From a virus (Duplodnaviria; Caudoviricetes), in the IMG/VR virus record IMGVR_UViG_3300011102_000151, positions 1 to 47,957 of that record: a stretch of 47,957 nt of DNA; one strand, given 5' to 3'. A program made the translations under genes and the position numbers. A model generated the notes under the pieces. That model did no database searches, was not told where the DNA came from, and worked only from the letters and a program-made list of their open reading frames with translations. Shown in pieces: positions 5,233 through 47,249 of this stretch; positions within the stretch are counted from its first letter, which is position 1; each line of letters begins with the position of its first letter.

Positions 5233-8079
5233 TCAGTCACATACCATCGCCACCGGCACGGCCACATAGCGCGACTGCGCCCCCGCGAACTTTTCCGACC
5301 GCGCGCCTTTCGCCGCGCCTGGCAGCCGCGCCAGCACCGCCGCCCAGGAATTCGCCCATGCCGTGTCCTGCATGATCCTGGCGAGTTCCGGGTGCTGGTT
5401 GGCGATCCACACCTGGCCGCTTTCGATGCGGATGCCATGGCGCCGCAGCGTGTCGTTCGCGTCGGTGCTGTTCACGCCGGCCGGGTCCGACGCCCGCCGG
5501 TCGGCGATCGCCACCAACTCGCCCAGCGACCGCTCGCGCGTGCCAAGGTCGCCCACCACGCGCACCATGCGGGCCATCATGTGCGACAGGCAGCGGCTGC
5601 CGTCGTCCTGCTCGTTGATGGCCCGTTCGTCGCTCCAATCCTGCGCGGCCAGCCATTCCCGCGCCGCTTCGGGGGTGATGCGCTTCCCGCTGTATAGCGC
5701 ATAGCAGCCAGCCAGCAGCGTGCCGATCTGGTCGCCCAGCCGGCGCATGCCCAGCAGCGCGGCGCCGGCTTCGGCGAACACCTTGGCGTTGTGCCGAATG
5801 ACCGGGATCAGCGATATCGCGCGCGCGTGCAGCCGGCCGATCCATTCTTCCGTCAGCGTTTCTTCGATCGCGTCCAGCATGGCGTTGTAGTTCGCCGTCG
5901 CCGCGGCGCTGCCGTCGTTCTTGACCAGCCCCAGCACCGAAATGCGCGTGCGCGCGGCGTGCTGGCCGATGTTGATGGTGATTGACGAAAAACAGAACAT
6001 GGACCGGATGCGGAAGTGCGTCGACTTGCCGTTCGCACCCCCTTTGATGATCGCCGCGCCGCTGTCGGTCGCCGATTGCGTCAGCAGCTTTAGGATTTCC
6101 TGCGTGCGTTCGCCGTCCTTCCGGGTTTCGCTGTCGAACTCGTCGAACATCACCGGCAGGCTGTCTATGCCCAGATCCTGGCGGATGCCGGCTTCGGTGG
6201 TGGTGGACGCCACGAAAAGGCCCGCCGGCACAACGCACGGCTTGACGATGCCTTCCAGCACCGACGATTTTCCGCTGCCTGATTCGCCGGTGATCCAGAT
6301 CGATGGCCGGTAGCGCAGCGCGCCGCAGATCGGCGCCAGCATGCAGAACCCGGCCAGCAGGCGGCCGCTGATCGATCGCTCCCAGTTCGGCATCGCGCAG
6401 ATTTTGTCCAGCTTCACGGCGTCGGCCGCCGACAGCGGATCATCCAGCGACACCGGCCACGCCGGGCGCGCTTCGTAGATGAACCTGCTGGGCACGTCGA
6501 TCAGCGAATGGCTGGCGCCATCGATCACCACCCGGTCGCCAAGATGCACAGCGCTGCGGCCATCGTCCCACCACGCGCCGCGGCCGCGCACGCTCTCGGG
6601 CCGGTACACGCCGAACGACTTCGACCGCTGGATCAGCGCGTTCGCCGCAGCGGCCCAGTCCACCATATCGCCGCTGCGTTTTTCCGAAGGGAACGACCGC
6701 TGCCAGTAGTGCAGCGGCGCTAGGAACATCAGCTGTCGGCTGCCGTGGTTGGCGGCCGACAGCTCGAGAACCTGCGGGAAATCCCTCGGCAGGTAGAAGC
6801 AACTGGCGCGGTCGCAGCCGAGATAGCGCCACGGCTGATCGCCGTCGGGCTGCTGGCGATCGTCCGGCGGGATATCGTCGTAGTCCGGCGCCGGCGGGTA
6901 ATCGGCCGGATCTGGCGGCGGTTCATCCGGTGCTGGGGCTGGTGGCGCTGACGTAGGTTTCTGATTTTCCTCCGAAATGGGATTTCCCATATCGGATGCT
7001 TGTTCCGCTGGCGCCGGCGGGTGCGCCGCCATGATCTGTTCCGGCGTGCGCAGGTGGTCGCGGATATACGCCATCACCTGCGACTGGTCCCAGCCTTCGG
7101 CCTCGGCGTCGGCCAGGTCCCAGCCGTCCGCCAGCACCCCCGGCGGCGGCACTTCGATGATGCGCATGGTGGCGCCGTGTTCGGCCACCGCCGCGGCGAT
7201 CGCCAGCATGGCGGCGATGCCTGGCTGCTGCTGATACGGCAGATATTCGTCCGTCTGCTGGTCGCGCTTGCTGTCGCAGTCCGGCCAGCCGACCACCTTC
7301 CGGCCGCGCAGCAGCGACCAGTCGGCATGCCGCACGGCCTTGCTGCCGCCCATCCACGACACCGCCACGATCGGCAGGCCCGCCAGCAGGCGCCGCGCGG
7401 CGTCGCACTTCTTGCAGCCTTCCACTACCAGCACCTGCCAGTCAGGGTGCGCGGCCAGCAGTTCGGTGCCGTACAGCAGGCGCGGCTTGGGCAGGCTGCC
7501 CTGTTTCCAGCGCGCTTCGCCGGTCTTGGCGTTCACTTTCCAGCGGACCGGGATGATGTCTTTCTTCCCGGGTTCCGGTTCGATGCGGCAGTCGTAGGCC
7601 AGCAGCGCGCCGGTGGCGTCGCGGTAGGGCCAAGCGCCCAGCACCGGGAATTCCTGCCATTCGCCGCGGCGCTGCACGCGCAGCGTTGCCGGTGCGGGTT
7701 CGTCGGCCGGCGCTGTGCCGGGTATCCAGTCGTCTGGTGGTGGCGCTGGGCGCGGCGCGGCGCGGCGTTCGAAATTCTCGTTCGCAGCGGCCGCACCCCC
7801 GGCGAGTTCAGCCAGGCGCTGGATCGCTTCGGCCGGCTGCATGCGGTGGTACTTCTGCAGGAAGTTGATCTGGTCGCCGGCTTCGCCGCAGCCCATGCAG
7901 TAATACAGACCGCTGTCGCCCTTGTCCGGTTCGACGGTGAAACTGGGGGTGCGTTCCGAATGGAACGGACACAGCGCCTTGTATTCGCTGCCCGCGCGTT
8001 CCAGCTCGACGCCGTGGCGTTCCAGCAGTTCGACCAGCGGCAGCTGTTCTTTCAGTTTGTGAACGTCATAGCGGGCCAT
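5233..8079 (-). CDS. DNA primase-helicase (CHC2 Zn finger, TOPRIM, P-loop ATPase)
   Basis: CPFH..ERTPSF..YYCMGC zinc finger; VVEG and DCD TOPRIM motifs; GESGSGKS Walker A, FDEFD Walker B; probable start MARYDV. Confidence 0.92.
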   Translation of the reverse strand: MARYDVHKLKEQLPLVELLERHGVELERAGSEYKALCPFHSERTPSFTVEPDKGDSGLYYCMGCGEAGDQINFLQKYHRMQPAEAIQRLAELAGGAAAANENFERRAAPRPAPPPDDWIPGTAPADEPAPATLRVQRRGEWQEFPVLGAWPYRDATGALLAYDCRIEPEPGKKDIIPVRWKVNAKTGEARWKQGSLPKPRLLYGTELLAAHPDWQVLVVEGCKKCDAARRLLAGLPIVAVSWMGGSKAVRHADWSLLRGRKVVGWPDCDSKRDQQTDEYLPYQQQPGIAAMLAIAAAVAEHGATMRIIEVPPPGVLADGWDLADAEAEGWDQSQVMAYIRDHLRTPEQIMAAHPPAPAEQASDMGNPISEENQKPTSAPPAPAPDEPPPDPADYPPAPDYDDIPPDDRQQPDGDQPWRYLGCDRASCFYLPRDFPQVLELSAANHGSRQLMFLAPLHYWQRSFPSEKRSGDMVDWAAAANALIQRSKSFGVYRPESVRGRGAWWDDGRSAVHLGDRVVIDGASHSLIDVPSRFIYEARPAWPVSLDDPLSAADAVKLDKICAMPNWERSISGRLLAGFCMLAPICGALRYRPSIWITGESGSGKSSVLEGIVKPCVVPAGLFVASTTTEAGIRQDLGIDSLPVMFDEFDSETRKDGERTQEILKLLTQSATDSGAAIIKGGANGKSTHFRIRSMFCFSSITINIGQHAARTRISVLGLVKNDGSAAATANYNAMLDAIEETLTEEWIGRLHARAISLIPVIRHNAKVFAEAGAALLGMRRLGDQIGTLLAGCYALYSGKRITPEAAREWLAAQDWSDERAINEQDDGSRCLSHMMARMVRVVGDLGTRERSLGELVAIADRRASDPAGVNSTDANDTLRRHGIRIESGQVWIANQHPELARIMQDTAWANSWAAVLARLPGAAKGARSEKFAGAQSRYVAVPVAMVCD

Positions 8080-8596
8080 CAGCGGCCCCATTGTCGTTGG
8101 CGTGGCGCAGATCGATGAACCGTCCGGCGTGCCGATAGGCGCGCAGCCTGGCCGCGTCGTAGGCGCCATAGGCCGCCAGCACGCTGGGCGCGCCGGAATT
8201 TGCCTTCGCGCGGGTGCCGTCTACGAAATGGAAGTGCAGGCGTCCGCGCAGGAACAGCACCGCATCCGCGCCATCCCATACGTGATCGAAGAACATTCCG
8301 GTTTCGGTGCGTGCGAAGATCAGCGCAGTTCCGCAGCCGTGCGCAACCAGCAGCGCGAGCCATGCGGCGGCTTCCAGACCATAGGGCGGGTTAAGCCAAA
8401 CGCGACCATGCCACGGCATCGACAGGCCGTTATGTTCCTTCGTGTAGTGCTGCGCCGCGGTAGGCCACGGCCGAACGATCGGCGCGCAGGGGTCCAGATC
8501 GAACGGGCCGAGCGCTTCGATAATGTGGGGCGGCGTCAGCCATTCGTCGTTTTTCATTGCGGCGGACTGGTGGCCGCCGATGCCCTTCCTGCCCAC
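8066..8596 (-). CDS. Phage DNA N6-adenine methyltransferase (phage Dam-like family)
   Basis: DEWLTP, FDLDPC and WLNPPY motifs. Confidence 0.9.
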   Translation of the reverse strand: MGRKGIGGHQSAAMKNDEWLTPPHIIEALGPFDLDPCAPIVRPWPTAAQHYTKEHNGLSMPWHGRVWLNPPYGLEAAAWLALLVAHGCGTALIFARTETGMFFDHVWDGADAVLFLRGRLHFHFVDGTRAKANSGAPSVLAAYGAYDAARLRAYRHAGRFIDLRHANDNGAADGPL

Positions 8597-8600
8597 GCCA

Positions 8601-9131
8601 TCACCCCCGCCGTTCGATATCGGCGGCCGTCCGTGGCGCGTTGTCGTTGGCGGTCAGGTCGCCGCGGTCGTTCGGCGACTGATAATTTCGATAGTAGATT
8701 TTCCGCGCCGGATCGCCGACGTAGAACCCCCACTTATTTTTTTTGCTGCCGAAGATGAAAAACATCGTCCACACGCCGCCACCTGACACTGCATCGATGC
8801 GGTGCGTGGTTTCTGCACTGGCGCCGCGCGTGTCGCCAGGTTGGCGCAGTTCCAGGCCGCCGAATGATGTTTCTTCGATGTAGTAGCCGCGCAGCACGAT
8901 GGTCCGCCACGGCCAGGGGTGATCATGCAGATACGGGTCGGCATCCGGCCGCAGAATATGGTGGATGCGGATCGAAACCGGCAGGTGCCAGCTGCGCGGG
9001 ATCAGCCAGTATCGGTGCATGTAGTCGCCGATATGCACATACGGCCGGCGCATGGCGGTGCGGATCAGGAAATCGGTGATTGCAGGACGGCAGGCGATCC
9101 AGGCGACGGCGCGCCAGAATAGGTTTTTCAT
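8601..9131 (-). CDS. Cupin-like HDHPW phage protein
   Basis: RIHHILRPD..LHDHPW...GYYIEE...HRI His-rich cupin pattern. Confidence 0.65.
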   Translation of the reverse strand: MKNLFWRAVAWIACRPAITDFLIRTAMRRPYVHIGDYMHRYWLIPRSWHLPVSIRIHHILRPDADPYLHDHPWPWRTIVLRGYYIEETSFGGLELRQPGDTRGASAETTHRIDAVSGGGVWTMFFIFGSKKNKWGFYVGDPARKIYYRNYQSPNDRGDLTANDNAPRTAADIERRG

Positions 9132-9208
9132 TGTTGTTTCCCTGGCAGATTGTTGTTGTGATCAGTATTGCGCAACTATAGCGCGCAATAATAGTGGAGC
9201 ACAACTGA

Positions 9209-9649
9209 TCAAGGGGAATAATTCTGCAGTAAATCCGTGAACTCCGCATCGCTGCGGACGATCAGCGCGATGCCGCCGGCGGCCGCCACCTGTTCGCGCC
9301 AGTTATTCTGTTCAGCGGACGCGCGGCCGCGCGCCGTCTTGGTTTCGACGGACAGGAACACGGCCACGCGGCGGCCGACCATTTCGGGGGTGATGGTGAT
9401 GGAATGCCAGCCGATGCCGTCGCCAGATCCGACGAACAGACCGGCGTGCAGCGGCCGGGCGTTTTCGATCAGCACCGCGCCATCGGGCAGGCGCACGGCA
9501 TGGCCAATCCAACCCTGGCCGACGTTATTGCGAAACAGTCTAACTCCCGGCAGCCGGCCGGCAGCCAGAAGAACGCGCTTCCAGATATTCGTCTCGCTCG
9601 CCGGGGCCTGCCGCGGCGGTGGCGGCATTGTCGGTTTTCTGGTGGTCAT
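9209..9649 (-). CDS. VRR-NUC domain nuclease
   Basis: RNNVG...GSGD..G...VETKT..GR.S.EQ. Confidence 0.85.
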   Translation of the reverse strand: MTTRKPTMPPPPRQAPASETNIWKRVLLAAGRLPGVRLFRNNVGQGWIGHAVRLPDGAVLIENARPLHAGLFVGSGDGIGWHSITITPEMVGRRVAVFLSVETKTARGRASAEQNNWREQVAAAGGIALIVRSDAEFTDLLQNYSP

Positions 9650-11370
9650 GCTGTAGCGGTGCGCCTGTCTGCGTTTTCGTTATCGTTCGCACCCATGAAC
9701 TGCAGGTGGCCCAGTTCGCTGCGCAGGCGTTCGATTTCTTCGCGCAGCGCCTTCGGTTTCAGACCGTTGATCGTAGTGACCGGATATTGGCCGCCGGCGT
9801 CGATGAACTGGTGCGCCAGGTCACGCAGCTCGTTTTGAAGCCGTTCCTTTTCCTCGCGCGCCTGCAGAACGTGCATCGCGCGTTCTTTCGACATGCCTAT
9901 CGCCATCAGCTGCGCCAGCGTGCGCGCCTCACCTTGCGCCTTCCTGGCCTGCATGGCTGCCGCGGCTTCCGGTGTGATCTCCACCAGCTTGCCGTCCACC
10001 TGTTCGGGCAGCGCGGTCCCGGTTTCGAACACATGATCGCATATCGTGCCGTCAGGTTTCACCAGCCCGCACACCTGGCGCGGCTCGGCGCAGCCATAAC
10101 AAATCGGGCACTGCGTAATCGAAATTTTCGGCCCGTTGTCGTTCGCGGCGCGCGTTCCGCGCTTCCTGCCCTTTAAATCCCAATCCCTGTCCGCCATCGG
10201 CGATCCGTGCTTCGGTTCGAAGCCCCGTTCTGTTTGAACGCCTACGTTGCCCACATGGTCGATCAGGATGCCGAACGGTTTGTCCGATGCCGCGATCGCG
10301 GCCAGGCGCCCTTCGCATGTCGATAGGTCGAATCCTGGCGCGTATACCGGCCGCGCCACCCGGCCCGCCTGCTGCAAGAACAGCCCTTCGGATTCGGTGT
10401 ACCGCAACATGATAGCCACTTCCGCGACCGGAATGTCGGTGCCCTCGCCGGCGATATCGACAGTAACGATCCCGTGCAGGCGACCATCGGCAAGGCCGGC
10501 GATCCTGCTGTCGCGCAAATCTTCGTCCATGTCGCCGATCACGACCTCGAACCGCCACCCGGAAGCCTTGAACGCTTCGGCGACGTGTTCCGCGTGCCTG
10601 ACGTTCGTGCAGAAAACGATCGCCGGGCGCCCCGGCGCGATTTCGGAATAGTGCTTCACCGCGTCGCCAGTAACATGCGGCTTATCAAGTATCTGCGCCT
10701 GTTCGTCGGGATCAATGTCGCCACCCTTGCGGTGGGCCTGCGACGGGTCCGCCTTCCGTGGCGGCACGATGATGCGGAACGGCACCAGATAGCCGTCCTC
10801 GGCCAGTTCTTTCATCGATGGGCCGAGAATCATTTTGTCGAATACGTCGCCCAGGCCCTGGCCGTCAGTCCGGCACGGCGTCGCCGTCACGCCGATGATG
10901 ATCGCGTTCGGGCAGGCTTCGATAATTCGCGCCCATGTGCCGGCGACGGCGTGGTGCGCTTCGTCGATGATGATGATTCGCGGGTTGAACCGTTTCAGCC
11001 AGTCCATGCGCCGCGCCAACGTCTGGACGCTGGCCACAGCCACTTCGGCGGCGTCGTCGACCATCGGCCAGCCGATCTTTTCGACGTGCGCGCGGCGGAT
11101 GGCGGCGATTTTGTCGGGCGGGGCGACGATGCGGTGACGCACACCAAGGCCCCCGACCGCCAAGCTGGCCTGGCGCAAAAGTTCCTTGCGGTGTTCCAGT
11201 ATCAGAATTCGGTTTCCGCGTGCCGCAGCGCCGCGCGCCATGGCTGCGTATGTGACAGTTTTGCCGCCGCCGGTGGGCAGCACGAACAGCGGCGCCTTGA
11301 ATTTTTCGGCCAGTGCGCGGCGAATATTGTTCAGGCCGGTTTCTTGGTAGGGGCGAAGCGCTATCGTCAC
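9646..11370 (-). CDS. SF2 DEAH-box helicase with C-terminal Zn ribbon
   Basis: LRPYQ, PTGGGKT, DEAHH, TATP, QQAGR motifs. Confidence 0.95.
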   Translation of the reverse strand: MTIALRPYQETGLNNIRRALAEKFKAPLFVLPTGGGKTVTYAAMARGAAARGNRILILEHRKELLRQASLAVGGLGVRHRIVAPPDKIAAIRRAHVEKIGWPMVDDAAEVAVASVQTLARRMDWLKRFNPRIIIIDEAHHAVAGTWARIIEACPNAIIIGVTATPCRTDGQGLGDVFDKMILGPSMKELAEDGYLVPFRIIVPPRKADPSQAHRKGGDIDPDEQAQILDKPHVTGDAVKHYSEIAPGRPAIVFCTNVRHAEHVAEAFKASGWRFEVVIGDMDEDLRDSRIAGLADGRLHGIVTVDIAGEGTDIPVAEVAIMLRYTESEGLFLQQAGRVARPVYAPGFDLSTCEGRLAAIAASDKPFGILIDHVGNVGVQTERGFEPKHGSPMADRDWDLKGRKRGTRAANDNGPKISITQCPICYGCAEPRQVCGLVKPDGTICDHVFETGTALPEQVDGKLVEITPEAAAAMQARKAQGEARTLAQLMAIGMSKERAMHVLQAREEKERLQNELRDLAHQFIDAGGQYPVTTINGLKPKALREEIERLRSELGHLQFMGANDNENADRRTATA

Positions 11371-12076: not shown

Positions 12077-12415
12077 TCAGCCCCCGGCCAGCGCGCGTTC
12101 CAGTTCCATGGCGTTGCGCTTGATGTCGCGCGCGATTTCCAGGGGGTTCCGCGGCGCGTCGGCCTCTTCGCCCAGCGCGTCGAACTCGGCGCGGTACTTC
12201 TCCGGCAGCGTGCCGCGCTTGTCGGCGACGCGCAGGATCGAAGCGCGCAGCCGTTCATAGCTGCCCGGCGCCGGTTCGGAACCTTCCGTCAGCCAGCGGT
12301 GCGGTGTGCTGGTGGCCATGCGGATGCGCCGACAGGCCGCATGGACGGCCACCTTGCATTCCGCTGCAAGGTTATAAACCTCCCGCCCCTTATTACCCTT
12401 TTCATCTTTTATCAT
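12077..12415 (-). CDS. Putative HTH (Cro-like) regulator
   Basis: VHAACRRIRMATSTPHRWL resembles an HTH; first gene of leftward operon. Confidence 0.55.
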   Translation of the reverse strand: MIKDEKGNKGREVYNLAAECKVAVHAACRRIRMATSTPHRWLTEGSEPAPGSYERLRASILRVADKRGTLPEKYRAEFDALGEEADAPRNPLEIARDIKRNAMELERALAGG

Positions 12416-12420
12416 CGAGC

Positions 12421-12650
12421 ATCACCGAATATCACCGGAAGTTGTAGCGCGCATTATTGCGCAACTAATTCGATAGTGCAACGCGGTGACAAGATATCCG
12501 CCGGGAAACGGCGGTAAATCGATAGGGGCCGCGTGATATCGGAAAAACCGAAATGCGATATCGGGAAATCCGGTGATAATTCTATGAGAATTTTTTAATC
12601 GCACTGGTTGCAGCGCCGATTTCCATTGCGCAATAATGCGCGCAACGGTT
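12421..12650. promoter_or_regulatory. Divergent early control region
   Basis: Leftward TTGCAC-17-AATAAT; rightward TTGCAG-18-AATAAT; 18-bp inverted repeat 12447-12464/12626-12643. Confidence 0.75.
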
Positions 12651-15029: not shown

Positions 15030-16072
15030 CCATGAACGAAATCGTAACCCGGGAAGAAACAGGCCCTGCTGGCGCGTTCGCGCGGAATCAGCCGCCGGCG
15101 CCAGGCGCAAACGTCGGCGCGGTCGCCATCGAATCAGAACGCGCGATTGCGGAAGCACAGGGACAGCTGGTGCTGGCGAAGCGTTTTCCGCGCGATCTGG
15201 ACGCTGCGCACGATGAACTTATGCGGTCTTGCAGCATGCTGGCGTTTGCGAACGTGGCCTTCTACAGCGTTCCCCGCGGCGACAAAACCGTTTCCGGTGA
15301 ATCAATCCGGCTGGCCGAAGAACTGGCCCGCGTGTATGGCAATTTCGAATTCGGCCACCGCGAGCTGTCGCGCAGCGGCGACAAGTCCGAAGTCGAAGTC
15401 TACGCCTGGGACAAGGAAAAGAACAACCGCAGCATCAGGCAGATCACGGTGATGCACGTCCGCGACACCCGGCAAGGGTCATACAAACTGCGCGACCAAA
15501 AGGAAATCGACGACAAGATCGCAAACGTCGGCAGCAAGCAGGTGCGCGGTCGTATCTTGGCGCTGATGCCGAAATGGCTGGTCGAAGCCGCGAAGGAACG
15601 GTGCCATCAGACGCTTCTGGAAGCGGCCGACAAAGATGGCATAGCCAAGCGGCTTCCGAAGATGGTGAGCGCGTTCGCCGCGTACAAGGTGACCGAAGAA
15701 CAGCTAACCGAATACGTAGGTCGCCCGCTCCAGACGATCACTTCCGAAGAATTCGTCGAGCTAACCGGCATCTATAACGCGCTGCGCGAAGGCGCCAATC
15801 CTGCGGACTACTTCGGGGGTGTCGCAGCAACAGCAATGAACGACAACGAACCGCAAGCCAAGGCGCTGCCGGCCGCCACCGCCGGCCAGGCGCCGCACCC
15901 TGCCGCTGCAGCGGCGAAGCGAAAGCAATCGGCCAAGACTCAGCAGGAGGATGAGAAGCCAGCAGAAACCGCCAAAGACTTCGCACCTGCGCCAGCCCCG
16001 GCACCACAGCCGGCGCCGGCGCCCGCGCCCGAACCTGCTGCCGCGGAAGATCCGCCGGGCGTGATGTTCTGA
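15026..16072 (+). CDS. Putative single-strand annealing/recombination protein
   Basis: Coupled to exonuclease; AKRFPRD, G.SIRLAEELAR motifs; Pro/Ala-rich tail. Confidence 0.6.
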   Translation: MTMNEIVTREETGPAGAFARNQPPAPGANVGAVAIESERAIAEAQGQLVLAKRFPRDLDAAHDELMRSCSMLAFANVAFYSVPRGDKTVSGESIRLAEELARVYGNFEFGHRELSRSGDKSEVEVYAWDKEKNNRSIRQITVMHVRDTRQGSYKLRDQKEIDDKIANVGSKQVRGRILALMPKWLVEAAKERCHQTLLEAADKDGIAKRLPKMVSAFAAYKVTEEQLTEYVGRPLQTITSEEFVELTGIYNALREGANPADYFGGVAATAMNDNEPQAKALPAATAGQAPHPAAAAAKRKQSAKTQQEDEKPAETAKDFAPAPAPAPQPAPAPAPEPAAAEDPPGVMF

Positions 16073-16933: not shown

Positions 16934-17305
16934 ATGGATATCGAACGCGCGGCGTTCGCCGCACTGGCCTACTACGCCGCCTGCTTGGCCTGCTGGGTGC
17001 CAGCGATCCTGATCACGAACCGGACGGACAGAACGACTCCGGCGGTATTCATCCTGCCGCTGGCGCCGGCTGTGGTGCTGCTGCACGTCCTGCGGCGCAT
17101 GCCGACCACGCGGCTGGTGCTGGCGTTCGTGGCGGGCGCCGTGCTGTTCGTCCTGGCCGGCTGCGACGGCTACGAACAGGCGCGCGTCTCGAGCCGGCAC
17201 TATTGCGAAATGGTGGATCTGTATAAGCGCACCGGCGGCGATAGAGGATGGCCGGCATACCGCGGTCAGCGCGAGTGCGCCGAATTCACAGATTCAGGTT
17301 TTTAA
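16934..17305 (+). CDS. Hypothetical membrane protein
   Basis: GAGGA RBS; three hydrophobic segments; YCEMV..W motif. Confidence 0.6.
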   Translation: MDIERAAFAALAYYAACLACWVPAILITNRTDRTTPAVFILPLAPAVVLLHVLRRMPTTRLVLAFVAGAVLFVLAGCDGYEQARVSSRHYCEMVDLYKRTGGDRGWPAYRGQRECAEFTDSGF

Positions 17306-18227
17306 CCGTCGCGTAGAACGTCGCTATACGGCTGCCGTCGCTGCGCTCGATCGTCAGGCGGCGCAGCAGTCCGAGCGTGGTTCCCACGGCATCGTCGTCA
17401 ACCTCGAACCAGCCGTCGGCATCCGTCGTGCCAGCATCGCCGCCGACCAGCTCGGCGCCGCGCGCGGTTTCACGAACCGACCAGATCAGGCCGGCTTCGT
17501 TGGCGATCAGCTCGCCGGTGTCGGTGTCGCGCAGCTGCAGCCGCAGGCCGTAGTTCGGCACCGGCGCAGTGGCTTCGAACACGTCGGAACCAACTTCGGT
17601 GGCGGCCAAGTCGCCAGCCACAACAACATCGCCGGAAATATCGGCCGCGTCTGCACCGGCTTCGGTCGCCGCCATATCGCCGGTTACATCGGTGCCGATA
17701 TTTTCGACGATCCGCATGGCCGACAGGCCGGCGTATTCCCATTCTCCGGCGCCGATCGAAAAGTCGATAACGATGCTGCCGCCAACCGGCGAAACGCCAG
17801 ATATCGTTCCGACCTTAGTTTCGTCGCTGCCGAAACCAACAATGTCGACGGACTGAGACCCGATAACGATGTGCGTCGGGTTGAACACGATGCCGGCGTT
17901 GGCGCCGAACGTCAGATCGTAGGTGTTCGAATTGTTCAGGCCGGAAATTGTGATCTGCGCGGTGTTGACTTCGATCGTCCGAAGTCGCGCCATGGTTGAC
18001 ATTGGTCCCTGCGCAAATTCGGGACCGCTGTATGTGGCGCCGGTGCTGGTCTCGTCGTTAAAGTTCGCCGTAACGTCAATGTTCCAGCCGGTGTTGAAAG
18101 TGTCGGTCGCATCGCGCGCGTTCAGCACTGACCCGGCATTGCTGGGTGAATTCAGCGAGTTGTAAAAATTTACCCCGTCCTCAACCTGCGACACAGACCC
18201 ATTGATGTTTATGTAGACCGCAGTCAT
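17286..18227 (-). CDS. Putative virion fibre/adhesin protein (beta-rich domain plus two module repeats)
   Basis: Gly/Thr/Asn/Val-rich; GDMAATEAGAD and GDLAATEVGSD repeats. Confidence 0.6.
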   Translation of the reverse strand: MTAVYININGSVSQVEDGVNFYNSLNSPSNAGSVLNARDATDTFNTGWNIDVTANFNDETSTGATYSGPEFAQGPMSTMARLRTIEVNTAQITISGLNNSNTYDLTFGANAGIVFNPTHIVIGSQSVDIVGFGSDETKVGTISGVSPVGGSIVIDFSIGAGEWEYAGLSAMRIVENIGTDVTGDMAATEAGADAADISGDVVVAGDLAATEVGSDVFEATAPVPNYGLRLQLRDTDTGELIANEAGLIWSVRETARGAELVGGDAGTTDADGWFEVDDDAVGTTLGLLRRLTIERSDGSRIATFYATVKNLNL

Positions 18228-19315
18228 GAGAATGATCCCCAGCCGATCAGGGCGCCTTCGACCAGATTAAAGTCGTCAACAATAATCACTGTTTGCTCTG
18301 CGAAACCAGAATTCGCCCACCCCCAAATATAAAGCTGGTCGATGTAGTTTCCGCGCGTCGCATACCGCCAATCCGTCCGTTCAAATATGATCGTTGGCGA
18401 TTCGCCCTGAACATATTTCCATACGCGAATGATGCCGTCCGTCATTCCTGGCGCGGATGCCAGCTTTACGTAAACCCTGTACTGAATTCGCCTGCCTATG
18501 TCCGATGCCGAGAACATGCTGCTGTATGCGCTGGTCGGCGGACCATAATCGTTTCCGTCCGCTCCGTCGTTTCCCCAGCGAAACGCGATCAATGAGCCGC
18601 CGCCGCCGACGCCGAAAACCGCATCGGGAACATATTCAAATCCGATGAACTGATTCGAGGCTATCGCGCCATAAGGGCCGGACCACAGCTGCACTATGCC
18701 CTTGTTGTTAGATGATCGACGGCTGGGGTCTGGTATGTGGCTTTGAGTTCTATGCACCCAGTTCAGCGGCAGAAGAATTGTCATCCGCAGGGAAAACTCT
18801 GTCAGCTGCCTACCGATCCCGGGTCCGCCGTCCCTTTTGCTCATATACAGTTCTGCGCTTGAATCCTCTCCGTCAGGATCTGGGCCCCAAACAAATCGGG
18901 CTGATGCAGAACCAATCAGCGGCGCTGCCGTTTCGATAGACACCCTGGTAGATGAATCGTAGGCCGCGCCGTTTTGCGAGTACGGGAGAACGAATGATCG
19001 TTCGAAGCCGTCGACAAACGAAAACGCCGGAGCGCTGGTCACTTCTCCACTGGCGGCCAGCGTGTCGGTGCCGGCTTCCGTCGCGGCAAGCGTTCCGACG
19101 ATGCTGTGGCCGCCAGCAGCAGCAAACAGATCAGGCCCGGTTTCGAACAGTTCCATGCTGCCCTGCACCGACAAATCTTCGGCGATGCCGGAACCGGCGA
19201 AAATATCCGACCCGCTTTCAGACGATGCGAAATCGCCGCCGAAGAAAGACGCCAGGCCCCCGCCGCGGCGAGGGAAAACCCTGAGCGTCTTTGCGCCTAC
19301 GGCCGAAACGGTCAT
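18224..19315 (-). CDS. Putative carbohydrate-binding/polysaccharide-lyase-like virion protein with three N-terminal module repeats
   Basis: Aromatic-rich beta-sandwich pattern (DGFE...DGIIRVW...WGWAN...VDDF). Confidence 0.55.
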   Translation of the reverse strand: MTVSAVGAKTLRVFPRRGGGLASFFGGDFASSESGSDIFAGSGIAEDLSVQGSMELFETGPDLFAAAGGHSIVGTLAATEAGTDTLAASGEVTSAPAFSFVDGFERSFVLPYSQNGAAYDSSTRVSIETAAPLIGSASARFVWGPDPDGEDSSAELYMSKRDGGPGIGRQLTEFSLRMTILLPLNWVHRTQSHIPDPSRRSSNNKGIVQLWSGPYGAIASNQFIGFEYVPDAVFGVGGGGSLIAFRWGNDGADGNDYGPPTSAYSSMFSASDIGRRIQYRVYVKLASAPGMTDGIIRVWKYVQGESPTIIFERTDWRYATRGNYIDQLYIWGWANSGFAEQTVIIVDDFNLVEGALIGWGSFS

Positions 19316-19325
19316 GGCGTCGCTG

Positions 19326-19697
19326 TTACGCGGCGTGCGTCAGCGTGGCGCTGTTGATGGTGATGTTCTGGCCTGCGGTGATATTGGTGCTGTCCAGAAT
19401 GATATCCGACGCGCTGGTGCCAACCGTCAGGCCGGTAATGATGTCGGTGTTGTCCGACTTCCGAATTCGCGCAGCCGCAGCAGTGCCAGTGCCACTTGCC
19501 GCGGCGGTTTTCGGGAATCCGCTGAACGTCAAGACGCCATTGGACGCCGCCGCGGCCGCGGTAGCATTGAGCGTGATCGTGGCCAGAATGGCCGCCATCG
19601 CCGCCGTGCCGATTTCCAGTTTTCCATTCGCGCCGATCTGTGCGGTTACGGCGTCCATGCGCGCGTTTTTTACGGCGATGCTGTAGACGACAGACAT
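19326..19697 (-). CDS. Small Ala/Thr/Gly-rich putative structural fibre subunit
   Basis: 123 aa; GAGGA RBS; GTAAAARI...G.VGTS.SD..L..TNI.AGQ.I.I pattern. Confidence 0.65.
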   Translation of the reverse strand: MSVVYSIAVKNARMDAVTAQIGANGKLEIGTAAMAAILATITLNATAAAAASNGVLTFSGFPKTAAASGTGTAAAARIRKSDNTDIITGLTVGTSASDIILDSTNITAGQNITINSATLTHAA

Positions 19698-19819
19698 TTG
19701 ATAGTCCTCGATAAGCCGGTGATGAATAAGGAATACCCGCAATATTGTCTCAGGCTGCGGCCCGGTAGCGCAAGGAAAGGCGGGTAAAACAGGGATGAGT
19801 ATTGCGCTCTATTGCGCAA

Positions 19820-20146
19820 CTACTCTTGCCGGATGAACCAGCAAATCACCTTTTCTTCTTCGTAGTGGAAGATCACCTGGCCGTCATCGTGCGCAGGGTC
19901 GTATGCGATCAGCGTTGCCCGGTATTTGCTGGGAATGATCTGCAGTTCGCCAAGCCGAAGCATTACGCGCCCCTGCGAATCCCATTCGATCATTTCGGGA
20001 TTGAGCGCACTATCAACCACGGTCTGAGACCCGCGAAACTTCATCACCATGCGGGTCACGCCGGAGAAATCTAGCGGCTTTCCGTCAGCGGTGATTTCCA
20101 GCACGTTTTCGTTGTCGCGCCCCAAGAAAAACAATTCGGTGATCAT
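19820..20146 (-). CDS. Small Ig/BppU-like putative adaptor protein
   Basis: 108 aa beta-rich; DG.PLDFSG motif; ATGA-coupled to upstream gene. Confidence 0.5.
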   Translation of the reverse strand: MITELFFLGRDNENVLEITADGKPLDFSGVTRMVMKFRGSQTVVDSALNPEMIEWDSQGRVMLRLGELQIIPSKYRATLIAYDPAHDDGQVIFHYEEEKVICWFIRQE

Positions 20147-21381
20147 GCGGCTGCTGCCTGTCTGCGTGACTTGACGACGCGCCGCGATGTTGCGGAGCGA
20201 ATGACGATCCTTCCGACGAAATCATCGACCGGCGGCAGATCGCCGCCAATGCCAGTGGCGACGAAGCGATCGGCCCCTATTTCGGTGGCGGCCATGGCGG
20301 CGTCGATGGACGCGCCGCCGATCGCGCGGAACGTGTCGGCCGCGTCTGTGGCGACCATGGCGCCAGCGATCGCCAGCTGGCCGGCCATGTCCGCTTCGTC
20401 AGATCCGACTTCAACCGCCGAAAAGTGACCGGAATGTTCGAACGATCCAGTGGCAGAAAACGCATCGCCGCCAGAATCCGCCGTCGCCATCGTCCCCGCG
20501 ATCAGCAGCTTTCCCAGGCCGGCCACCGTGTCCGCGCCGGTTTCGGTCGCAGCCAGGTCGCCGGCGATGGGTGCTGCGGCGGATGCCGCGAAGGCATCCT
20601 GACCGGCTTCGTGCGCAGCAAGATCGCCAGCGACAGCAACGACGCCTGCCGCTGCGAATGAGTCGGGCTGTTCGGTGGCGTCCATGGCGCCGCTGATATC
20701 GGCCGCGCCGACCGCTTCGAATGCGTCGCGGCCGACTTCCAGCGCCACCACTGCGCCGAATACCCGCACGCGGCCAGGCGCCGCCATGCTGTCGGAACCG
20801 AATTCCAGCGCCGCCGCTACACCGGAAACCAGCACGCCGCCCGATGCGGCGATGCTATCGGCTGACGTTTCCGCCGCTGCCATTGCGCCATAAACGCCGC
20901 CGCCATCCGCCGCGAACGTGTCCCGGCCAACCTCGCTGGCCGTCAAACTGCCGGTAACCGCGGTACTGGTGTTGAACAGCCCGGGAATCCAGACAGCGCC
21001 GTTCCAGTAGTACCATGGCACGTTCGTCAGATCGCTGGCGCCGGTCAGGCGCGCCAGGCGCAGCGTCGCGTTGCCGGCATCGTCGGTTTCCCATTCGAAC
21101 GCGCCAATCCCGCTGATCGGTAGAAGCACCTGATCGCCAGGTTCCGGCGTACCGCCGAGTGCAGATCCGAGCGAATCCGCGCCGGTCTGCACGGTGGCCG
21201 GGTTGATGGAAAACTGCGCGTATGTGTAGGCGGGGTTCGGGCGCCATCCGATCGCGGCGGCCGTGTCCTGGCCGGTTTCGGTGGCCGCCATGATGCCGGC
21301 TGGCCACAGCGGCGCGTAGTCCTGCGATCCGAAGCGGACGCCGCCCAGCGGGCTGTTTTGACTGCCGAAGCGAACCGCCAT
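20143..21381 (-). CDS. Repeat-rich putative fibre scaffold protein
   Basis: 11 tandem ~22-aa GxxAAxExGxDxxxAxG repeats plus one N-terminal copy. Confidence 0.7.
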   Translation of the reverse strand: MAVRFGSQNSPLGGVRFGSQDYAPLWPAGIMAATETGQDTAAAIGWRPNPAYTYAQFSINPATVQTGADSLGSALGGTPEPGDQVLLPISGIGAFEWETDDAGNATLRLARLTGASDLTNVPWYYWNGAVWIPGLFNTSTAVTGSLTASEVGRDTFAADGGGVYGAMAAAETSADSIAASGGVLVSGVAAALEFGSDSMAAPGRVRVFGAVVALEVGRDAFEAVGAADISGAMDATEQPDSFAAAGVVAVAGDLAAHEAGQDAFAASAAAPIAGDLAATETGADTVAGLGKLLIAGTMATADSGGDAFSATGSFEHSGHFSAVEVGSDEADMAGQLAIAGAMVATDAADTFRAIGGASIDAAMAATEIGADRFVATGIGGDLPPVDDFVGRIVIRSATSRRVVKSRRQAAAA

Positions 21382-21556: not shown

Positions 21557-22717
21557 ATGGCCACCGTCACGAAGCGCAGCTGGATCAATAAGCGCACCGG
21601 CAAGCCAACAACGCGCTATGTGCTGGGCTACGCCGACCGCACCGGCAAATGGCGCCGCAAGCAGTACAAGACGGCGGCCCGCGCGCATGCCGAACGTATC
21701 CGCGTCGAAGGCGAAGTCGCCGCCGGCGTCCACGTCGCCGACGCCGACAGCATCACAGTGGCCAAGGCGGTCGACGCATGGCTGGCCGACTATCAGGCGC
21801 TGGTTGACGCCGGAAAGCGCGAGCGATCCACGCTGGACGCCTACGCCCCCATCACCGCACATATCAAGGCGCACAATATCGCGGCCACGAAGCTGGCGCG
21901 CCTGACCGGCCCGCTTCTGAAAGAATTCACTGGCTGGCTGGAACAGAACCGCACCGAAGAACAGGGCCGGCGCACCATGAAAGTGCTGCGGCTGGTGATC
22001 GACTACGCCATCGGCCGCGGGTGGTGTTCCACGAACTTGGCGAAGTCGGCCAGCATCCGCACCGGCGGCGACCGCCATGAGGAAGAGGTAGAAATCCCGC
22101 CAAAGGAGCAGCTGCAGGCACTGCTGGCTGCCGCCGAAGCGCACAGCGTGAAGGCGCACGCCATGGTCAGCGTGCTGCTGTTCGTCGGCCTGCGCGCCAG
22201 CGAGCTGCGCGGCCTGCGGCGTGTGGACGTTGACCGGAACGAATGCCGCGTGCGCCAGCGCGCCGACAAGTACCAGAAGATCGGCGCGCCGAAGTCGAAG
22301 AAAGGTCGCCGCGACGTGCCGATGCCGCCGGCGACGTGGCGCATTCTGGCGGCGTGGATGCTGCAGGCGCCGAAGTCGAAAGACGGCCTGTTGTTTCCGA
22401 ACGGCGTCGGCAAGGCCGAGTCCTACGCCAACATCTGGAACCGGCTATGGGTGCCGCTGATGGATGCCGCCGGCCTGACGCGACCGGAAGAACAGCCAGA
22501 CGGCAGCGTCAGGATGGCGCCTCTGTTCGGCCTGCACGCGCTGCGGCACGCCTGCATATCGTTGTGGATCGAACAGAACGTGAGCCCCAAGAAAGTCAGC
22601 CAGTGGGCCGGCCATTCGTCGGTGGCGTTCACGCTGGACACCTACGGCCACTTGTGGAAGCAGCGCGAAACCGACGCGCAGATCGCGGCAGCGTCCGAAG
22701 CCGCGTTATTTAAATAG
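21557..22717 (+). CDS. int: Tyrosine integrase
   Basis: GLRASE, K, HALRH, GH, Y catalytic residues in order. Confidence 0.95.
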   Translation: MATVTKRSWINKRTGKPTTRYVLGYADRTGKWRRKQYKTAARAHAERIRVEGEVAAGVHVADADSITVAKAVDAWLADYQALVDAGKRERSTLDAYAPITAHIKAHNIAATKLARLTGPLLKEFTGWLEQNRTEEQGRRTMKVLRLVIDYAIGRGWCSTNLAKSASIRTGGDRHEEEVEIPPKEQLQALLAAAEAHSVKAHAMVSVLLFVGLRASELRGLRRVDVDRNECRVRQRADKYQKIGAPKSKKGRRDVPMPPATWRILAAWMLQAPKSKDGLLFPNGVGKAESYANIWNRLWVPLMDAAGLTRPEEQPDGSVRMAPLFGLHALRHACISLWIEQNVSPKKVSQWAGHSSVAFTLDTYGHLWKQRETDAQIAAASEAALFK

Positions 22718-22813: not shown

Positions 22814-23803
22814 GTGGACATCGCAATCAATGGACGGACGGACCGCGCTACAGCGCTGAACCGAATCCCAGAGCTAGACGCGCTGCGCTTCATCGCGGCG
22901 CTGGCGGTGGTGTTCTACCACCTGGCCTATGGATCGATCACTCGCTACGGCTATCTCGGCGTCGATCTTTTTTTCATGATCAGCGGCTACGTGATCTTCT
23001 GGAGCGCGAACGGTCGCACCGCCAGCGAATTCGCCGTGTCGCGGTTCGCGCGACTGTATCCGGCGTTCTGGGTGTGCCTGGCGATCACGGTGGCGACCGG
23101 CTGGATCTTGCGCGACGAACTGCCGACGATGGCGCAGCTGATGGCCAATATGACAATGGCCGCCGGCTATGCCGGACAGGAATACATCGATGGCGTTTAC
23201 TGGACGCTGCAGGTCGAACTCAAATTCTATGCGCTGGTGTTCGTTCTGGTCGCACTGCGCCAGATGCACAACGCCGAAGCCTGGCTGTTCGCGTGGCTGC
23301 TGGCGTGCTGGATTGATTCTCTGTTCGGCCTGCCGAGCTGGGCGCAGTCGCTGATCATCGCGCCATACGGCCCGCTGTTCATCGCTGGCGCGCTGTTCCT
23401 GCTGATCCGCACCGGCGGCGCCAACCGGGAAAGACTTCTCGGTGTTGTCGCCTGCCTGCTGATGGTGGTGGCTGGCGCTCAGGATAATTCGGCCGGCTAC
23501 CTGTTCGGCGAACGCAGCCAGGTGGCGCCGGTAATCGTGGTGGCGCTGTTCGGCGTGATGGCGGCCATGGCGTTCGGATGGCTGCGCATCGCGCCCAGCG
23601 CCGCGCTGACGCGCGTGGCAGCGATGACCTATCCGCTGTACCTGCTGCACAACGCGATCGGCAAAGGCATCGCAGAACACGCCGGCGCCGCCGCGGCCAT
23701 CGTGGTGGCGCTGGTGCTGGCCTACGTGGTCAGCGCGGTTGACGCGCCGGTGTCGCGCTACGTGCGCCGGAAACTGGAAGCGGCCGTGTGCCGCAGGGGG
23801 TGA
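22814..23803 (+). CDS. Acyltransferase-3 family membrane O-acyltransferase (OafA/Oac-like), likely lysogenic conversion
   Basis: LDALR..A...V..YH, GVDLFFMISG, RFARLYP, WTL.VE..FY, YPLYLLH; multiple TM helices. Confidence 0.92.
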   Translation: MDIAINGRTDRATALNRIPELDALRFIAALAVVFYHLAYGSITRYGYLGVDLFFMISGYVIFWSANGRTASEFAVSRFARLYPAFWVCLAITVATGWILRDELPTMAQLMANMTMAAGYAGQEYIDGVYWTLQVELKFYALVFVLVALRQMHNAEAWLFAWLLACWIDSLFGLPSWAQSLIIAPYGPLFIAGALFLLIRTGGANRERLLGVVACLLMVVAGAQDNSAGYLFGERSQVAPVIVVALFGVMAAMAFGWLRIAPSAALTRVAAMTYPLYLLHNAIGKGIAEHAGAAAAIVVALVLAYVVSAVDAPVSRYVRRKLEAAVCRRG

Positions 23804-23957: not shown

Positions 23958-24007
23958 TGGTGCCCAGGGCCGGAATCGAACCAGCGACACGCGGATTTTC
24001 AGTCCGC
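23958..24007 (-). other. attP core: 3' half of tRNA-Phe(GAA)
   Basis: GCGGA-CTGAAAA-TCCGC anticodon arm, GCTGG-TTCGATT-CCGGC T arm, CCTGGGC-A-CCA end; 5' half absent; IHF consensus AATCAGCTAGTTA at 24023-24035. Confidence 0.9.
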
Positions 24008-26926: not shown

Positions 26927-27922
26927 TTACAGCTTGATCATGAAATTGACGAAGGCGGTCGGCTGCATGTTGTTGTGTGCCTGGCCGCCGCCTTCGCTGG
27001 TGGTCGGAATAAGGCCGCCGCCGCTTCCGTTCGCCGTGAACGCTGATGACCCCGTTCCGTTGGCTGGCACGTCGTGGTCATGCGGCGCCGTTTCCGCGAA
27101 GATGGTGACGTGCGCTTCCTCGCCCACCGTTTCGCCCAGTGCGCGGTTCGCCATCGTCAGCGTCAGCGTGTGGGTGCCGGTGCCGGCGGCGGTAATGTTG
27201 ATGGCCGTTCCGGCGTGCGCATTCGCCAGCGACGTGGCCAGCTTGATGACGGTGGCGCTGGTGCGGATCACCCAGTAATCGGTCGCCGCCACCAGCGGCG
27301 CCGGCAGCGTGGTGGTGGAACTGACGCGCACCACCTGGCCGGTGTAAAGCGTGCTGTTCGCATCGATGGTCAGCTCGTCGGTGGTGGCGTTGGCCGTGAA
27401 CGCCGAAGTGAACACCCCCTGCCCGGCGGCCGCCAGCGCGCGGCCCAGCATCTTGGTAAGCCGGATGGGCTTATTCGCCGCGAAGTCGGCCGCCGCCGAT
27501 GCGCCGCGGCCGCCGGTGACGGGCGCCCAGGCGTCTGCGACGTTGTTCCACAGGACGGTATACAGCGCTTCGGTGTCGGCATTCGCGCGCGTGGTGGCGC
27601 CGCTGGCGCCGCTGCCGATCGTGCCGTCGTTGCACATAACCCAGCCGGCATCGGCGACGGTTTTCAGGGTTGGTTTAAGGTCTCCGGTGGTGAACCCGGC
27701 GGCCGCCGCAATCATCGTTTTGATGGCGGCAAGCAGCTGCGCATTGTTCGCCTTGTTTAGCGGCGTGTTCCCGCCGGTCGGATCGACAATGACATTTTCG
27801 ATTTCTGTCTGAACCGCGTTCATAAAGTCCGCGGTGACCTCGGTCGCCGGCGTTCCGGTGCCGGGGTTGCCTTCGGTCCAGTGCCCGTCACCCGTCGCGC
27901 CGGGTCCGTCGATCCTGTGCAT
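26927..27922 (-). CDS. Tail fibre with collar-type domain
   Basis: Mu-like MHRID..N.VQ.E N-terminus; GWVMCN.G and HNNMQP..NFMIK collar motifs. Confidence 0.85.
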   Translation of the reverse strand: MHRIDGPGATGDGHWTEGNPGTGTPATEVTADFMNAVQTEIENVIVDPTGGNTPLNKANNAQLLAAIKTMIAAAAGFTTGDLKPTLKTVADAGWVMCNDGTIGSGASGATTRANADTEALYTVLWNNVADAWAPVTGGRGASAAADFAANKPIRLTKMLGRALAAAGQGVFTSAFTANATTDELTIDANSTLYTGQVVRVSSTTTLPAPLVAATDYWVIRTSATVIKLATSLANAHAGTAINITAAGTGTHTLTLTMANRALGETVGEEAHVTIFAETAPHDHDVPANGTGSSAFTANGSGGGLIPTTSEGGGQAHNNMQPTAFVNFMIKL

Positions 27923-27958: not shown

Positions 27959-28195
27959 CTATCCGCCCATGGCGGCGGCTATTCGTTGGTCGATGAGCGC
28001 AATGATAGCATCGCGCAGCTGTGTATTGCTCGCCTTGGACGGCGCCGCGCCGGCTTCTTCGATCACTGCGATGATTTCTGCCTGTACAGCGTTCATCCAG
28101 TCCGCTGTGATCTCCGTAGCCGGTATGCCGGCTCCGGCGTTGCCTTCTGTCCATTCGCCCTGCGCTGTCGCGCCAGGTCCGTCAATGCGGTGCAT
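27959..28195 (-). CDS. Stand-alone tail-fibre N-terminal (baseplate anchor) protein
   Basis: 78 aa paralogous to N-terminus of next gene. Confidence 0.75.
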   Translation of the reverse strand: MHRIDGPGATAQGEWTEGNAGAGIPATEITADWMNAVQAEIIAVIEEAGAAPSKASNTQLRDAIIALIDQRIAAAMGG

Positions 28196-42274: not shown

Positions 42275-43810
42275 TTACTTGGCCTGTTCTTCCTCCGATT
42301 CCCCTTCGTCTACGGGATTATCATCGTCCGTCTTGGCAGGTTCTTCGGGTTCATTGTCGTTCGCAGCGGCCGGCTTCGTCGCGCCCGCCGACCCCGCCGG
42401 CAGCGCGAACCGCGGGTCGCAGTCCAGTTTCAGCCCGTTCGCGTCCAGCAGTTCGTTCGCTTCCGCGATCGCCTCTGCCTGTTCAACGGGGTCATAGCCC
42501 AGCGCGGTGATCTGCTGCGGCCAGGTGGCGAAGCCGTTGCGGACTTCCTCTTTCATCGCCGCGATTTCTTCCTTCGGGTTCACCATCATGCGCCGCGGCG
42601 GCACCCACTCGGCCGGGCAATCTTCGGCCAGGACACCGGCGACTTTCGCGGCGTCGTTGAACCACCGCCACACGCCGGCGCAGAAACCGGGGATGAACAT
42701 CTGCCATTGCCAGCGGTCGATCCGGCGCTGGTAGTTCTGCCAGCCCATGCGGCCGCTGCTGAAATTCACGCCGGCCAGGTCGCTGAACACCTCATAGGGA
42801 ACGCCATAGCCCGCTGCTATTGCGTGCAGGTTGATCCAGGCGAAATCACGATAGCCGTTCACGCCGGGCGGACTGGCGAACGAAACGTCGGTGCCTGGCG
42901 GCGCGAAGTCGATAAGACCCGGTTCCAGCCGTTCGGCGATTTCCACTTTCTTGGCGGCGGCTTCCGCGTCCGGCGCGGTGAAGAACACCGAGAAGCAGGA
43001 CGCCACCTTTTCGCGTTCGATGTAGGCGTCCTCGACTTCATCGAAGTTGCGCAGGCGCAGCATCACTGGCGCCGCCCACGGCACGCCGCGCACCTGGCCG
43101 GGACGGTCCATGCGGTAGACGTGCAGCACGTCCGCGGCCGGCACGAATTCGGAATTCATGTGGCGCAGGCCCGTGCGCGCGCCGGGGTGTTCCCGGTACA
43201 GCCAGTATCCTTCGACGGCACCGGACTGCAGCAGCTGAACGCCGCCGATGACCACCTTGCCGTCGAACACGCCGTCTTTCGTGTCGTCTAGGAAGTCGGA
43301 TTCCAGCACCTGCAGCTGAAACGGCAGCGGCAGTTTGGCCGCCGAATTCCGCCAGCGGCGCCGCACCAGCACTTCGCCGGATTCGACAATGGCACCCAGC
43401 GCAAGCGCTTCCAGGCCATAGATATCGTGAACGCCGTCGTAGTCGATGGCGCGGGTTTCGCAGTGTTCCTTCCAGGCTTCGGCCGCGCGGCGGGTGATCG
43501 TCTTGTTCCGGCCCTTCGGCTTGGGCTTTATGCCGTAGCCCACCGTGTTGTCGATGATCGATTCGATGGCTGCGCTGGCGTAGGGGTTGTTCCGGCGCAG
43601 ATCGCGCGCACGATTGCGCAATAGTCGAAGCGCCGGGATGATCTCGCCGTTCGCGTCGCGGCTGCCGGTTTTCCAGTTGTCGGTACGGCGGCCGCGGGCG
43701 GCGCCTTCGAAGCCGCGTTCGTTGATCAGCTGCAGGCGCAGTCGGCTGGCGGCGCGCCGCGCGGCGACGCCTGGCGCCAGCGCAGCGATGGCCTGCTCAA
43801 GTAGGTTCAC
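42275..43810 (-). CDS. Portal protein, lambda family
   Basis: RARDL.RNN, RPGQVRGVP, VNFSSGR. Confidence 0.95.
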   Translation of the reverse strand: MNLLEQAIAALAPGVAARRAASRLRLQLINERGFEGAARGRRTDNWKTGSRDANGEIIPALRLLRNRARDLRRNNPYASAAIESIIDNTVGYGIKPKPKGRNKTITRRAAEAWKEHCETRAIDYDGVHDIYGLEALALGAIVESGEVLVRRRWRNSAAKLPLPFQLQVLESDFLDDTKDGVFDGKVVIGGVQLLQSGAVEGYWLYREHPGARTGLRHMNSEFVPAADVLHVYRMDRPGQVRGVPWAAPVMLRLRNFDEVEDAYIEREKVASCFSVFFTAPDAEAAAKKVEIAERLEPGLIDFAPPGTDVSFASPPGVNGYRDFAWINLHAIAAGYGVPYEVFSDLAGVNFSSGRMGWQNYQRRIDRWQWQMFIPGFCAGVWRWFNDAAKVAGVLAEDCPAEWVPPRRMMVNPKEEIAAMKEEVRNGFATWPQQITALGYDPVEQAEAIAEANELLDANGLKLDCDPRFALPAGSAGATKPAAANDNEPEEPAKTDDDNPVDEGESEEEQAK

Positions 43811-46544: not shown

Positions 46545-47249
46545 TCACGCCCCGCCGGCGATGGAATTGGAGCGTCCGGGTCGGTGCTGCCCCGCCGCCG
46601 CGCCGGTGGACCCGGCCGCTGCCTGCTTCGGACGCTTGGGGTACTGCTTCCGCAGTGGTTCAACCTGCGCGCGGGTGTCGTCGTCCAGCGGCATCAGGTA
46701 CTTGTGTTTTGCCGCGTCGAATACTCGTTCGGCCTTCGGGTCGACGTGCTGCCGAATGTAGTTCAGCCCTTGATGGCCGTATTTCGCATAGACGCTGCGG
46801 CGGTGGACGACTTCGCCGTGGATACGCAGCGAACAATCCACCTTCGTGGTGCCGACGTATATCCAGTTTCCGGCCTGATAAATCCCGCCGTGGTGGCCCT
46901 GTTCTCGGTCGGCGTAGGACACGATCAGCCGCAGGCCCGGCGACTGCCGGCGCAGGAACCGGATAGCGATCGCCACGATGCGCGAAACCGGCGTCACGTG
47001 GTCGCGCAGCGCAACCCGGGTCAGTTCGCACACTTCGGTCTGCTGCAGGTTGTACGGTGACCCGATCTGCGGCGTGGCGCCGCGGGAGAAGATCACCACG
47101 CCGATAAACCGATCGCCCTCCCATGCGCCGACTTTCACGGTCTTTCCGGCCGGCATGCAGCCGCTGTAGTGCCAGCGCTTGCAGGCGTGCTCGGCGGCTT
47201 CGTGCGTCGCCCAGTCGATGCGCAGATCAGGGCGCGAAGTGGTGGCCAC
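46545..47249 (-). CDS. Mom-family DNA adenine modification protein
   Basis: HYS, G...F, ELTR, SYAD..QGH.G.IYQA.NW.Y.G. Confidence 0.82.
   Translation of the reverse strand: MATTSRPDLRIDWATHEAAEHACKRWHYSGCMPAGKTVKVGAWEGDRFIGVVIFSRGATPQIGSPYNLQQTEVCELTRVALRDHVTPVSRIVAIAIRFLRRQSPGLRLIVSYADREQGHHGGIYQAGNWIYVGTTKVDCSLRIHGEVVHRRSVYAKYGHQGLNYIRQHVDPKAERVFDAAKHKYLMPLDDDTRAQVEPLRKQYPKRPKQAAAGSTGAAAGQHRPGRSNSIAGGA

Follow-up and report, generated by a model that had tools for sequence, protein, structure and literature searches.

Which function could make one short peptide, ANDN, recur in the tails and linkers of otherwise unrelated proteins of a single phage? The window analysed here is a whole virus record of 47,957 bases, in which portal, terminase and head are of lambda type, the tail operon is myovirus-like as judged from its translations, and the replication and recombination operons run divergently. 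A tyrosine integrase is encoded as well, which makes a temperate lifestyle likely. Searches of the window returned no tRNA, no tmRNA and no member of an Rfam family. Between the divergent early operons, at 12077-12604, no CI repressor is recognisable, and the ORF 12077-12415 found there is without PHROG match. The genes and sites discussed below are compiled in Table 1.

Table 1. Genes, motif sites and candidate attachment site in the window (positions counted along the 47,957-base record).
Feature	Position	Strand	Remark
Primase/helicase with CHC2 zinc finger	5233 to ~8079	-	
ANEN variant	7774..7785	-	primase linker after CHC2 zinc finger
Dam-family methyltransferase	8066-8596	-	Pfam
ANDN	8090..8101	-	methyltransferase C-tail, 11 residues from end
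Cupin-like protein	8601-9131	-	PHROG 4786; without Pfam match
ANDN	8640..8651	-	cupin-like protein C-tail, 16 residues from end
SF2 (RadD-like) DNA helicase, 574 aa	9646..11370	-	PHROG 16, Pfam ResIII/Helicase_C
ANDN	9679..9690	-	helicase residues 561-564, 14 residues from C-end
ANDN	10135..10146	-	helicase residues 409-412, disordered linker before Cys-rich module
RecT-like protein	15032-16072	+	PHROG; without Pfam match
MNDN variant	15836..15847	+	C-terminal linker of RecT-like protein
Tyrosine integrase	21557..22717	+	PHROG
Candidate attP core (likely)	23958..24007	-	3' half of tRNA-Phe, ~1.2 kb past integrase
Lambda-type portal	42275-43810	-	
ANDN	42353..42364	-	acidic C-tail of portal

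Upstream of the terminase genes the phage carries a second DNA-modification gene besides that of the Dam-family methylase, a Mom-family member (46545-47249, minus strand) that adjoins a ParB-like gene (47227-47799). At 17286-21381 (minus strand), beyond the integrase and separate from the main tail operon, are five genes that look virion-like and contain internal repeats. Two adjacent tail-fibre-like genes (26927-27922 and 27959-28195, minus strand) have a near-identical N-terminus (MHRIDGPGAT...), a likeness that suggests that the pair arose by duplication.

A sequence-only reading of this DNA had listed seven motif sites, all of which were recovered where it had placed them. Counted over a proteome of 57 hand-picked genes (14,712 aa), ANDN occurs five times in four proteins, against a mean of 0.14 in whole-protein shuffles (0/5000 reached five), an excess of about 35-fold that bears out the earlier estimate of well under one chance copy. 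Shuffling within local stretches of 20 residues gave an expectation of 0.17 (0/2000 reached five). ANDN is the top-ranked 4-mer of the proteome with a Poisson p of 3.8e-7; after Bonferroni correction over 160,000 words this becomes 0.06, a value that is borderline taken alone, so that independent support has to come from the homologues. At the DNA level, all five matches to GCNAAYGAYAAY in the window lie in frame within the ANDN genes and use four different codon strings, in line with the earlier remark that codons differ between copies. The density of GCNAAYGAYAAY is about 104 per Mb in the phage compared with 4-10 per Mb in five bacterial genomes. The flanks of the ANDN sites bear no DNA likeness to 62 tmRNA loci, which, together with the lack of a tmRNA in the window, rules out that the motif stems from tmRNA DNA taken up by the phage or from a repeat at the DNA level.

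As had also been claimed, the motif is confined to tails and linkers. The sites fall outside Pfam domains, while for the cupin-like and RecT-like proteins only PHROG spans exist, and the two helicase segments that contain ANDN (residues 405-418 and 561-566) were predicted with pLDDT values below 50. By helicase pLDDT and Pfam spans, ANDN thus lies in accessible, unstructured segments of the kind in which an SspB-binding site would be expected.

The helicase offered the richest comparison. Its best 120 homologues, a set that includes the query, comprise 65 with ANDN, whereas three scrambled words are found in none. In 62 of the 120 the motif starts 11-16 residues before the C-terminus, with freely varying flanks; 55 lack ANDN altogether, and the motif is therefore dispensable. 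Nine of the homologues (P0003, P0013, P0065, P0075, P0097, P0098, P0113, P0114 and P0118) measure 750-980 aa, match Hint/homing-endonuclease families in Pfam and probably contain inteins. These were dropped from a FastTree phylogeny built on the first 385 residues of the other 111, on which the tail motif requires 24 changes compared with 36.8 after shuffling, a pattern that reads as largely inherited with repeated losses. The internal helicase site holds ANDN or ANDD in 14/111 sequences scattered over the tree (11 changes, 13.4 shuffled), and is occupied in phages ZRG1 and M29 as well.

Other proteins differ widely in how often the motif appears. ANDN was found in 6/150 primase homologues against 0.97 expected, four of these copies sitting in two different linkers and the other two probably in folded parts. 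Four relatives (L003, L146, L185 and P0366) have ANDN at the very primase-linker site that carries the variant in the window. Three of them, L003, L146 and L185, also have it in the C-terminal linker of the RecT-like protein, as does Bordetella phage PY223, and the excisionases of L003 and L146 bear it at their N-termini. Relative G003 holds six copies and four other relatives none, and a scan of genome contigs yielded one distant locus. None of 120 integrase homologues contains ANDN, and only 2/120 portals do, the window's own included, so that the portal copy is probably a recent gain. On the strength of shuffles and of the scrambled-word controls in helicase and primase homologues we reject chance or linker composition as the source of the motif, which is real and recurs in relatives.

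The head of the tmRNA tag provides the closest match to ANDN. We used ARAGORN to obtain tags from 28 of 32 alphaproteobacterial loci. The tmRNA loci of the whole comparison, gamma- and betaproteobacterial ones included, were the best-scoring ones plus four others; the unpublished genomes G441 and G484 entered neither tag counts nor alignments, and no claim depends on them. ANDN begins 24/28 of these alphaproteobacterial tags but only 3/30 gamma- and betaproteobacterial ones. The distance from head to C-terminus, 11-16 residues in the 62 helicases and 11, 14 and 16 residues in the methylase, helicase and cupin-like protein of the window, overlaps in part with the 10-13 residues that make up the entire alphaproteobacterial tags. 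The idea that the motif corresponds to a tmRNA tag head stood up, with the alphaproteobacterial tag rather than the AANDE of Escherichia coli as its nearest model.

The description of the helicase tail as a near-complete tag did not survive. That tail ends in TA, other window tails end in PL and RG, and none of the 62 homologous tails ends in AA (LA is found in 15 and SA in 11). A C-terminal Ala-Ala with free carboxyl is consequently missing in the window and in all 62 helicase tails. A final A or G is no commoner with the motif (49/62) than without it (42/58), and in unrelated phages most copies are internal. The motif is read from in-frame phage codons in a window without tmRNA, and so is not appended in trans by the reading frame of a tmRNA. 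A complete ssrA tag was accordingly rejected. We consider it fairly probable that ANDN, although not an ssrA tag for want of trans addition and of an AA end, works like the SspB-binding head of one.

Modelling of an SspB-peptide complex, a check that the earlier reading had proposed, placed the helicase tail in the peptide groove. With a dimer of alphaproteobacterial SspB, a stand-in for that of the host, the tail (residues 543-574) scored 0.67 and the best control 0.02; the score mark was reached by 116/157 solved and 2/215 mismatched pairs. Contacts agreed to at least 62% between runs with a partner pLDDT of at least 54, and the predicted interface spans helicase residues 558-567 with the least error at N562. 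Close SspB structures have already been solved (2QAS and 2QAZ), the former reportedly with the tag peptide. The predictor may recall them, and the complex therefore shows likeness, not binding. As for the adaptor itself, sspB was present in 5/5 proteobacterial genomes examined, alpha and gamma, and adjoins ssrA in four alphaproteobacteria.

The motif extends well beyond relatives of the window phage. In IMG/VR, a PANDN-coding pattern occurs in an estimated 410 or so stretches against 113 for the scrambled PADNN, and 80 flanked PANDN loci carry 23 further ANDN copies compared with four for 80 controls. At least two further copies were found in 8/80 seeded loci and 0/80 controls, two of the eight being relatives of the window phage. 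Heads of gamma/beta type, PAND[DE], reach about 720 against about 510 for the control, roughly 1.4-fold. Among unselected matches a spacing of 10-16 residues from the C-terminus is not enriched (11/114 compared with 13/90 in the control, p 0.38). Matches with that spacing end in A or G in 7/11 cases versus 2/13 controls and in AA in 4/11 versus 0/13, and some unrelated phages have tag-like tails in which ANDN is followed by ...AVAA, ...KMAA or ...RLAA.

Just one of the 21 named phages compared is rich in ANDN, namely Ralstonia phage phiRSP (L740, MH252365.1), a betaproteobacterial phage with an integrase. One of its nine copies belongs to an HNH-like motif and others include a primase linker and a terminase tail, most being located in unannotated ORFs. 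Stutzerimonas phage ZRG1 has two copies and Xanthomonas phage M29, Bordetella phage PY223 and Aeromonas phage ST4 have one each, at sites equivalent to those of the window or in a tag-like tail. Four of four alpha-host phages hold 0-1 copies each. Single copies also turn up in one actinobacterial phage and in folded regions. In ST4 (L749, ~9989, minus strand) the tail runs ANDN-AEP-LALAA and then continues for four more residues, so that by its letters an entire tag-like stretch appears to be hidden behind a short extension. In L169, L178 and L190 the motif sometimes adjoins NVV or V-x-L segments resembling the C-terminal tail of alphaproteobacterial SspB (VVSLDAFRKK in L436); such segments may possibly mimic the ClpX-binding tail.

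The host of the window phage bears on which tag and which SspB the motif would meet. The candidate attP core has no match in viral contigs, and its exact sequence occurs in 123 stretches of metagenome DNA that span several phyla. We classified 119 of these matches by their neighbours: 50 follow a yacG-like gene (alpha-type), three follow yggX (gamma-type), 13 have a Firmicutes-type context, and the remaining 53 are other, partial or too short. In 401 Pseudomonadota genomes the core never occurs exactly, and in four, all of them alphaproteobacteria with ANDN tags, it occurs with at most two mismatches; none of 53 genomes from the order closest to a gamma-type match contains it. An acyltransferase-3 gene (22814-23803), possibly a surface-modifying moron, lies between the integrase and the core. 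Nine of ten organism-named integrase homologues are alphaproteobacterial at an identity of only 40-49%. The nearest named capsids are those of Bordetella phages (54%), the nearest named portals come mostly from pseudomonads, and one helicase homologue with two ANDN copies belongs to a Pseudoxanthomonas bin. Taking attP and integrase on one side and the head genes on the other, we lean slightly towards an alphaproteobacterial host, a beta- or gammaproteobacterial one being not much less probable.

The suggestion that the motif simply copies the tag of the host was not upheld, given nine copies in a Ralstonia phage, 0-1 in four alpha-host phages and an excess of PAND[DE] of only about 1.4-fold. 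Since the motif does not simply track the host tag, either ANDN is preferred by both SspB types, or it spread from alphaproteobacterial phages, or the receptor is not SspB. The Ralstonia tag is presumably of ANDE type, and the mismatch between phiRSP and this tag holds on that premise. The earlier interpretation thus stands in its tag-head match, the helicase spacing and the predicted SspB groove, and falls in the near-complete tag and in the tracking of host tags.

We favour, with fair rather than high confidence, the reading that ANDN is a genome-encoded docking site for SspB, with adaptor-dependent turnover or remodelling by ClpXP, in the manner of the engineered DAS+4 tag, as the likely outcome. 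In this model, the phage proteins for replication, modification and recombination would present ANDN, in their unstructured tails and linkers, to the peptide groove of the host SspB; once docked, the adaptor would hold them at ClpX, to be turned over conditionally or taken off the DNA. Tails such as those of the helicase, methylase and cupin-like protein, in which ANDN precedes a weak non-AA end by 11-16 residues, would act as natural DAS+4 tags, stable alone and degraded by ClpXP when delivered by SspB. Internal and N-terminal copies would serve as tethers only, with the pore-binding signal elsewhere. ClpX remodels MuA complexes, and RseA has an SspB site of its own. Whereas groove binding is a prediction of the modelling, delivery to ClpXP and its purpose are what we infer; the likely purpose would be to make early lytic enzymes short-lived or to strip them off the DNA. 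The spread of one copy per enzyme would favour turnover or tethering over titration of SspB, which the earlier reading had considered alongside timed turnover. A bolder version, in which temperate phages of alpha-, beta- and gammaproteobacteria repeatedly evolved the ANDN hook over their early replication and recombination module as a proteolytic sensor for the lysis-lysogeny decision, strikes us as unlikely, if worth stating. Under this sensor model, phage proteins would be stabilised during translation stress of the host because tmRNA-tagged proteins compete for SspB.

ANDN might instead be the ligand of another conserved proteobacterial or phage protein (an adaptor, chaperone or hub), its match to the tag reflecting shared chemistry or coincidence. 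Phages phiRSP, ZRG1, PY223, M29 and ST4 would fit such a receptor, as they carry ANDN and not ANDD or ANDE where only 3/30 gamma/beta tags begin with ANDN, and AND[DE] is barely enriched. However, the exact identity with the alphaproteobacterial tag head, the tag-like tails of unrelated phages, the predicted groove docking and the presence of SspB in both alpha and gamma genomes point back to SspB, and the phiRSP mismatch presupposes an ANDE-type Ralstonia tag; we rate a different receptor as improbable. About as improbable to us is a decoy or shield, whereby ANDN would bind SspB and slow the turnover of tmRNA-tagged or other clients, or protect its carrier from other proteases, without being degraded itself. 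This would agree with the non-AA helicase tails (0/62), with the many internal or N-terminal copies such as those of the L003 and L146 excisionases, and with a copy in the portal, a protein that has to come through assembly intact. Single copies in many enzymes would nevertheless make a poor sponge, and no tandem-repeat decoy protein is encoded in the window; a tethered degron is a better fit for the fixed distance of 11-16 residues between the motif and the end of the helicase, as it is for the AA-ended tails in unrelated phages (4/11 compared with 0/13 controls). That the motif has no function, being a by-product of linkers rich in A, N and D or a legacy of a single ancestral tail, is very improbable and already largely refuted, for although the borderline single-genome value, the largely inherited C-terminal helicase copy and the single copies of folded regions and of an actinobacterial phage would permit it, local shuffles and scrambled words yield next to nothing, the four residues persist while their flanks diverge, and copies in non-homologous proteins cluster by genome.

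If docking on SspB is the correct reading, phages exploit the adaptor of a host protease by means of a hook of just four residues distributed over many proteins, and the motif would reveal many natural SspB clients together with natural adaptor-dependent degrons of a design known mainly from engineering (DAS+4). The occurrence of ANDN in beta- and gamma-host phages raises the question of whether both SspB types bind it best of all or whether it marks a different receptor. In the literature searched, mostly the main text of open papers, we found no description of ANDN or ssrA-like SspB mimicry in phages. The novel elements are the series of helicase tails without AA end, the predicted groove docking of the helicase tail and the evidence for ANDN in beta/gamma-host phages.

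Among known systems, the alphaproteobacterial tmRNA tag shares with the phage sites the ANDN head, a similar distance to the C-terminus in the helicase, methylase and cupin tails, and predicted binding in the groove. The phage sites differ in being gene-encoded and without AA end, in a spacer about two residues longer, and in that many are internal or N-terminal. According to PMC3064785 and PMC8138137, SspB recognises the N-terminal portion of the tag, ClpX engages its three final residues, and a weakened end combined with a lengthened spacer, as in DAS+4, leads to SspB-dependent degradation. The phage tails resemble this engineered tag in an intact SspB head, a lengthened spacer and a weakened ClpX end, but are natural, reside in phage enzymes and end in LA, SA, TA, AG and others, their SspB dependence being putative. 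PMC8138137 lists RseA(1-108), the C-terminus of MuA and the N-terminus of lambda O as genome-encoded ClpXP signals, which are likewise hard-coded and give proteins of host or phage access to ClpXP. The MuA and lambda O signals, however, are described as ClpX motifs in single proteins, whereas here an adaptor-type motif is spread over many unrelated phage proteins.
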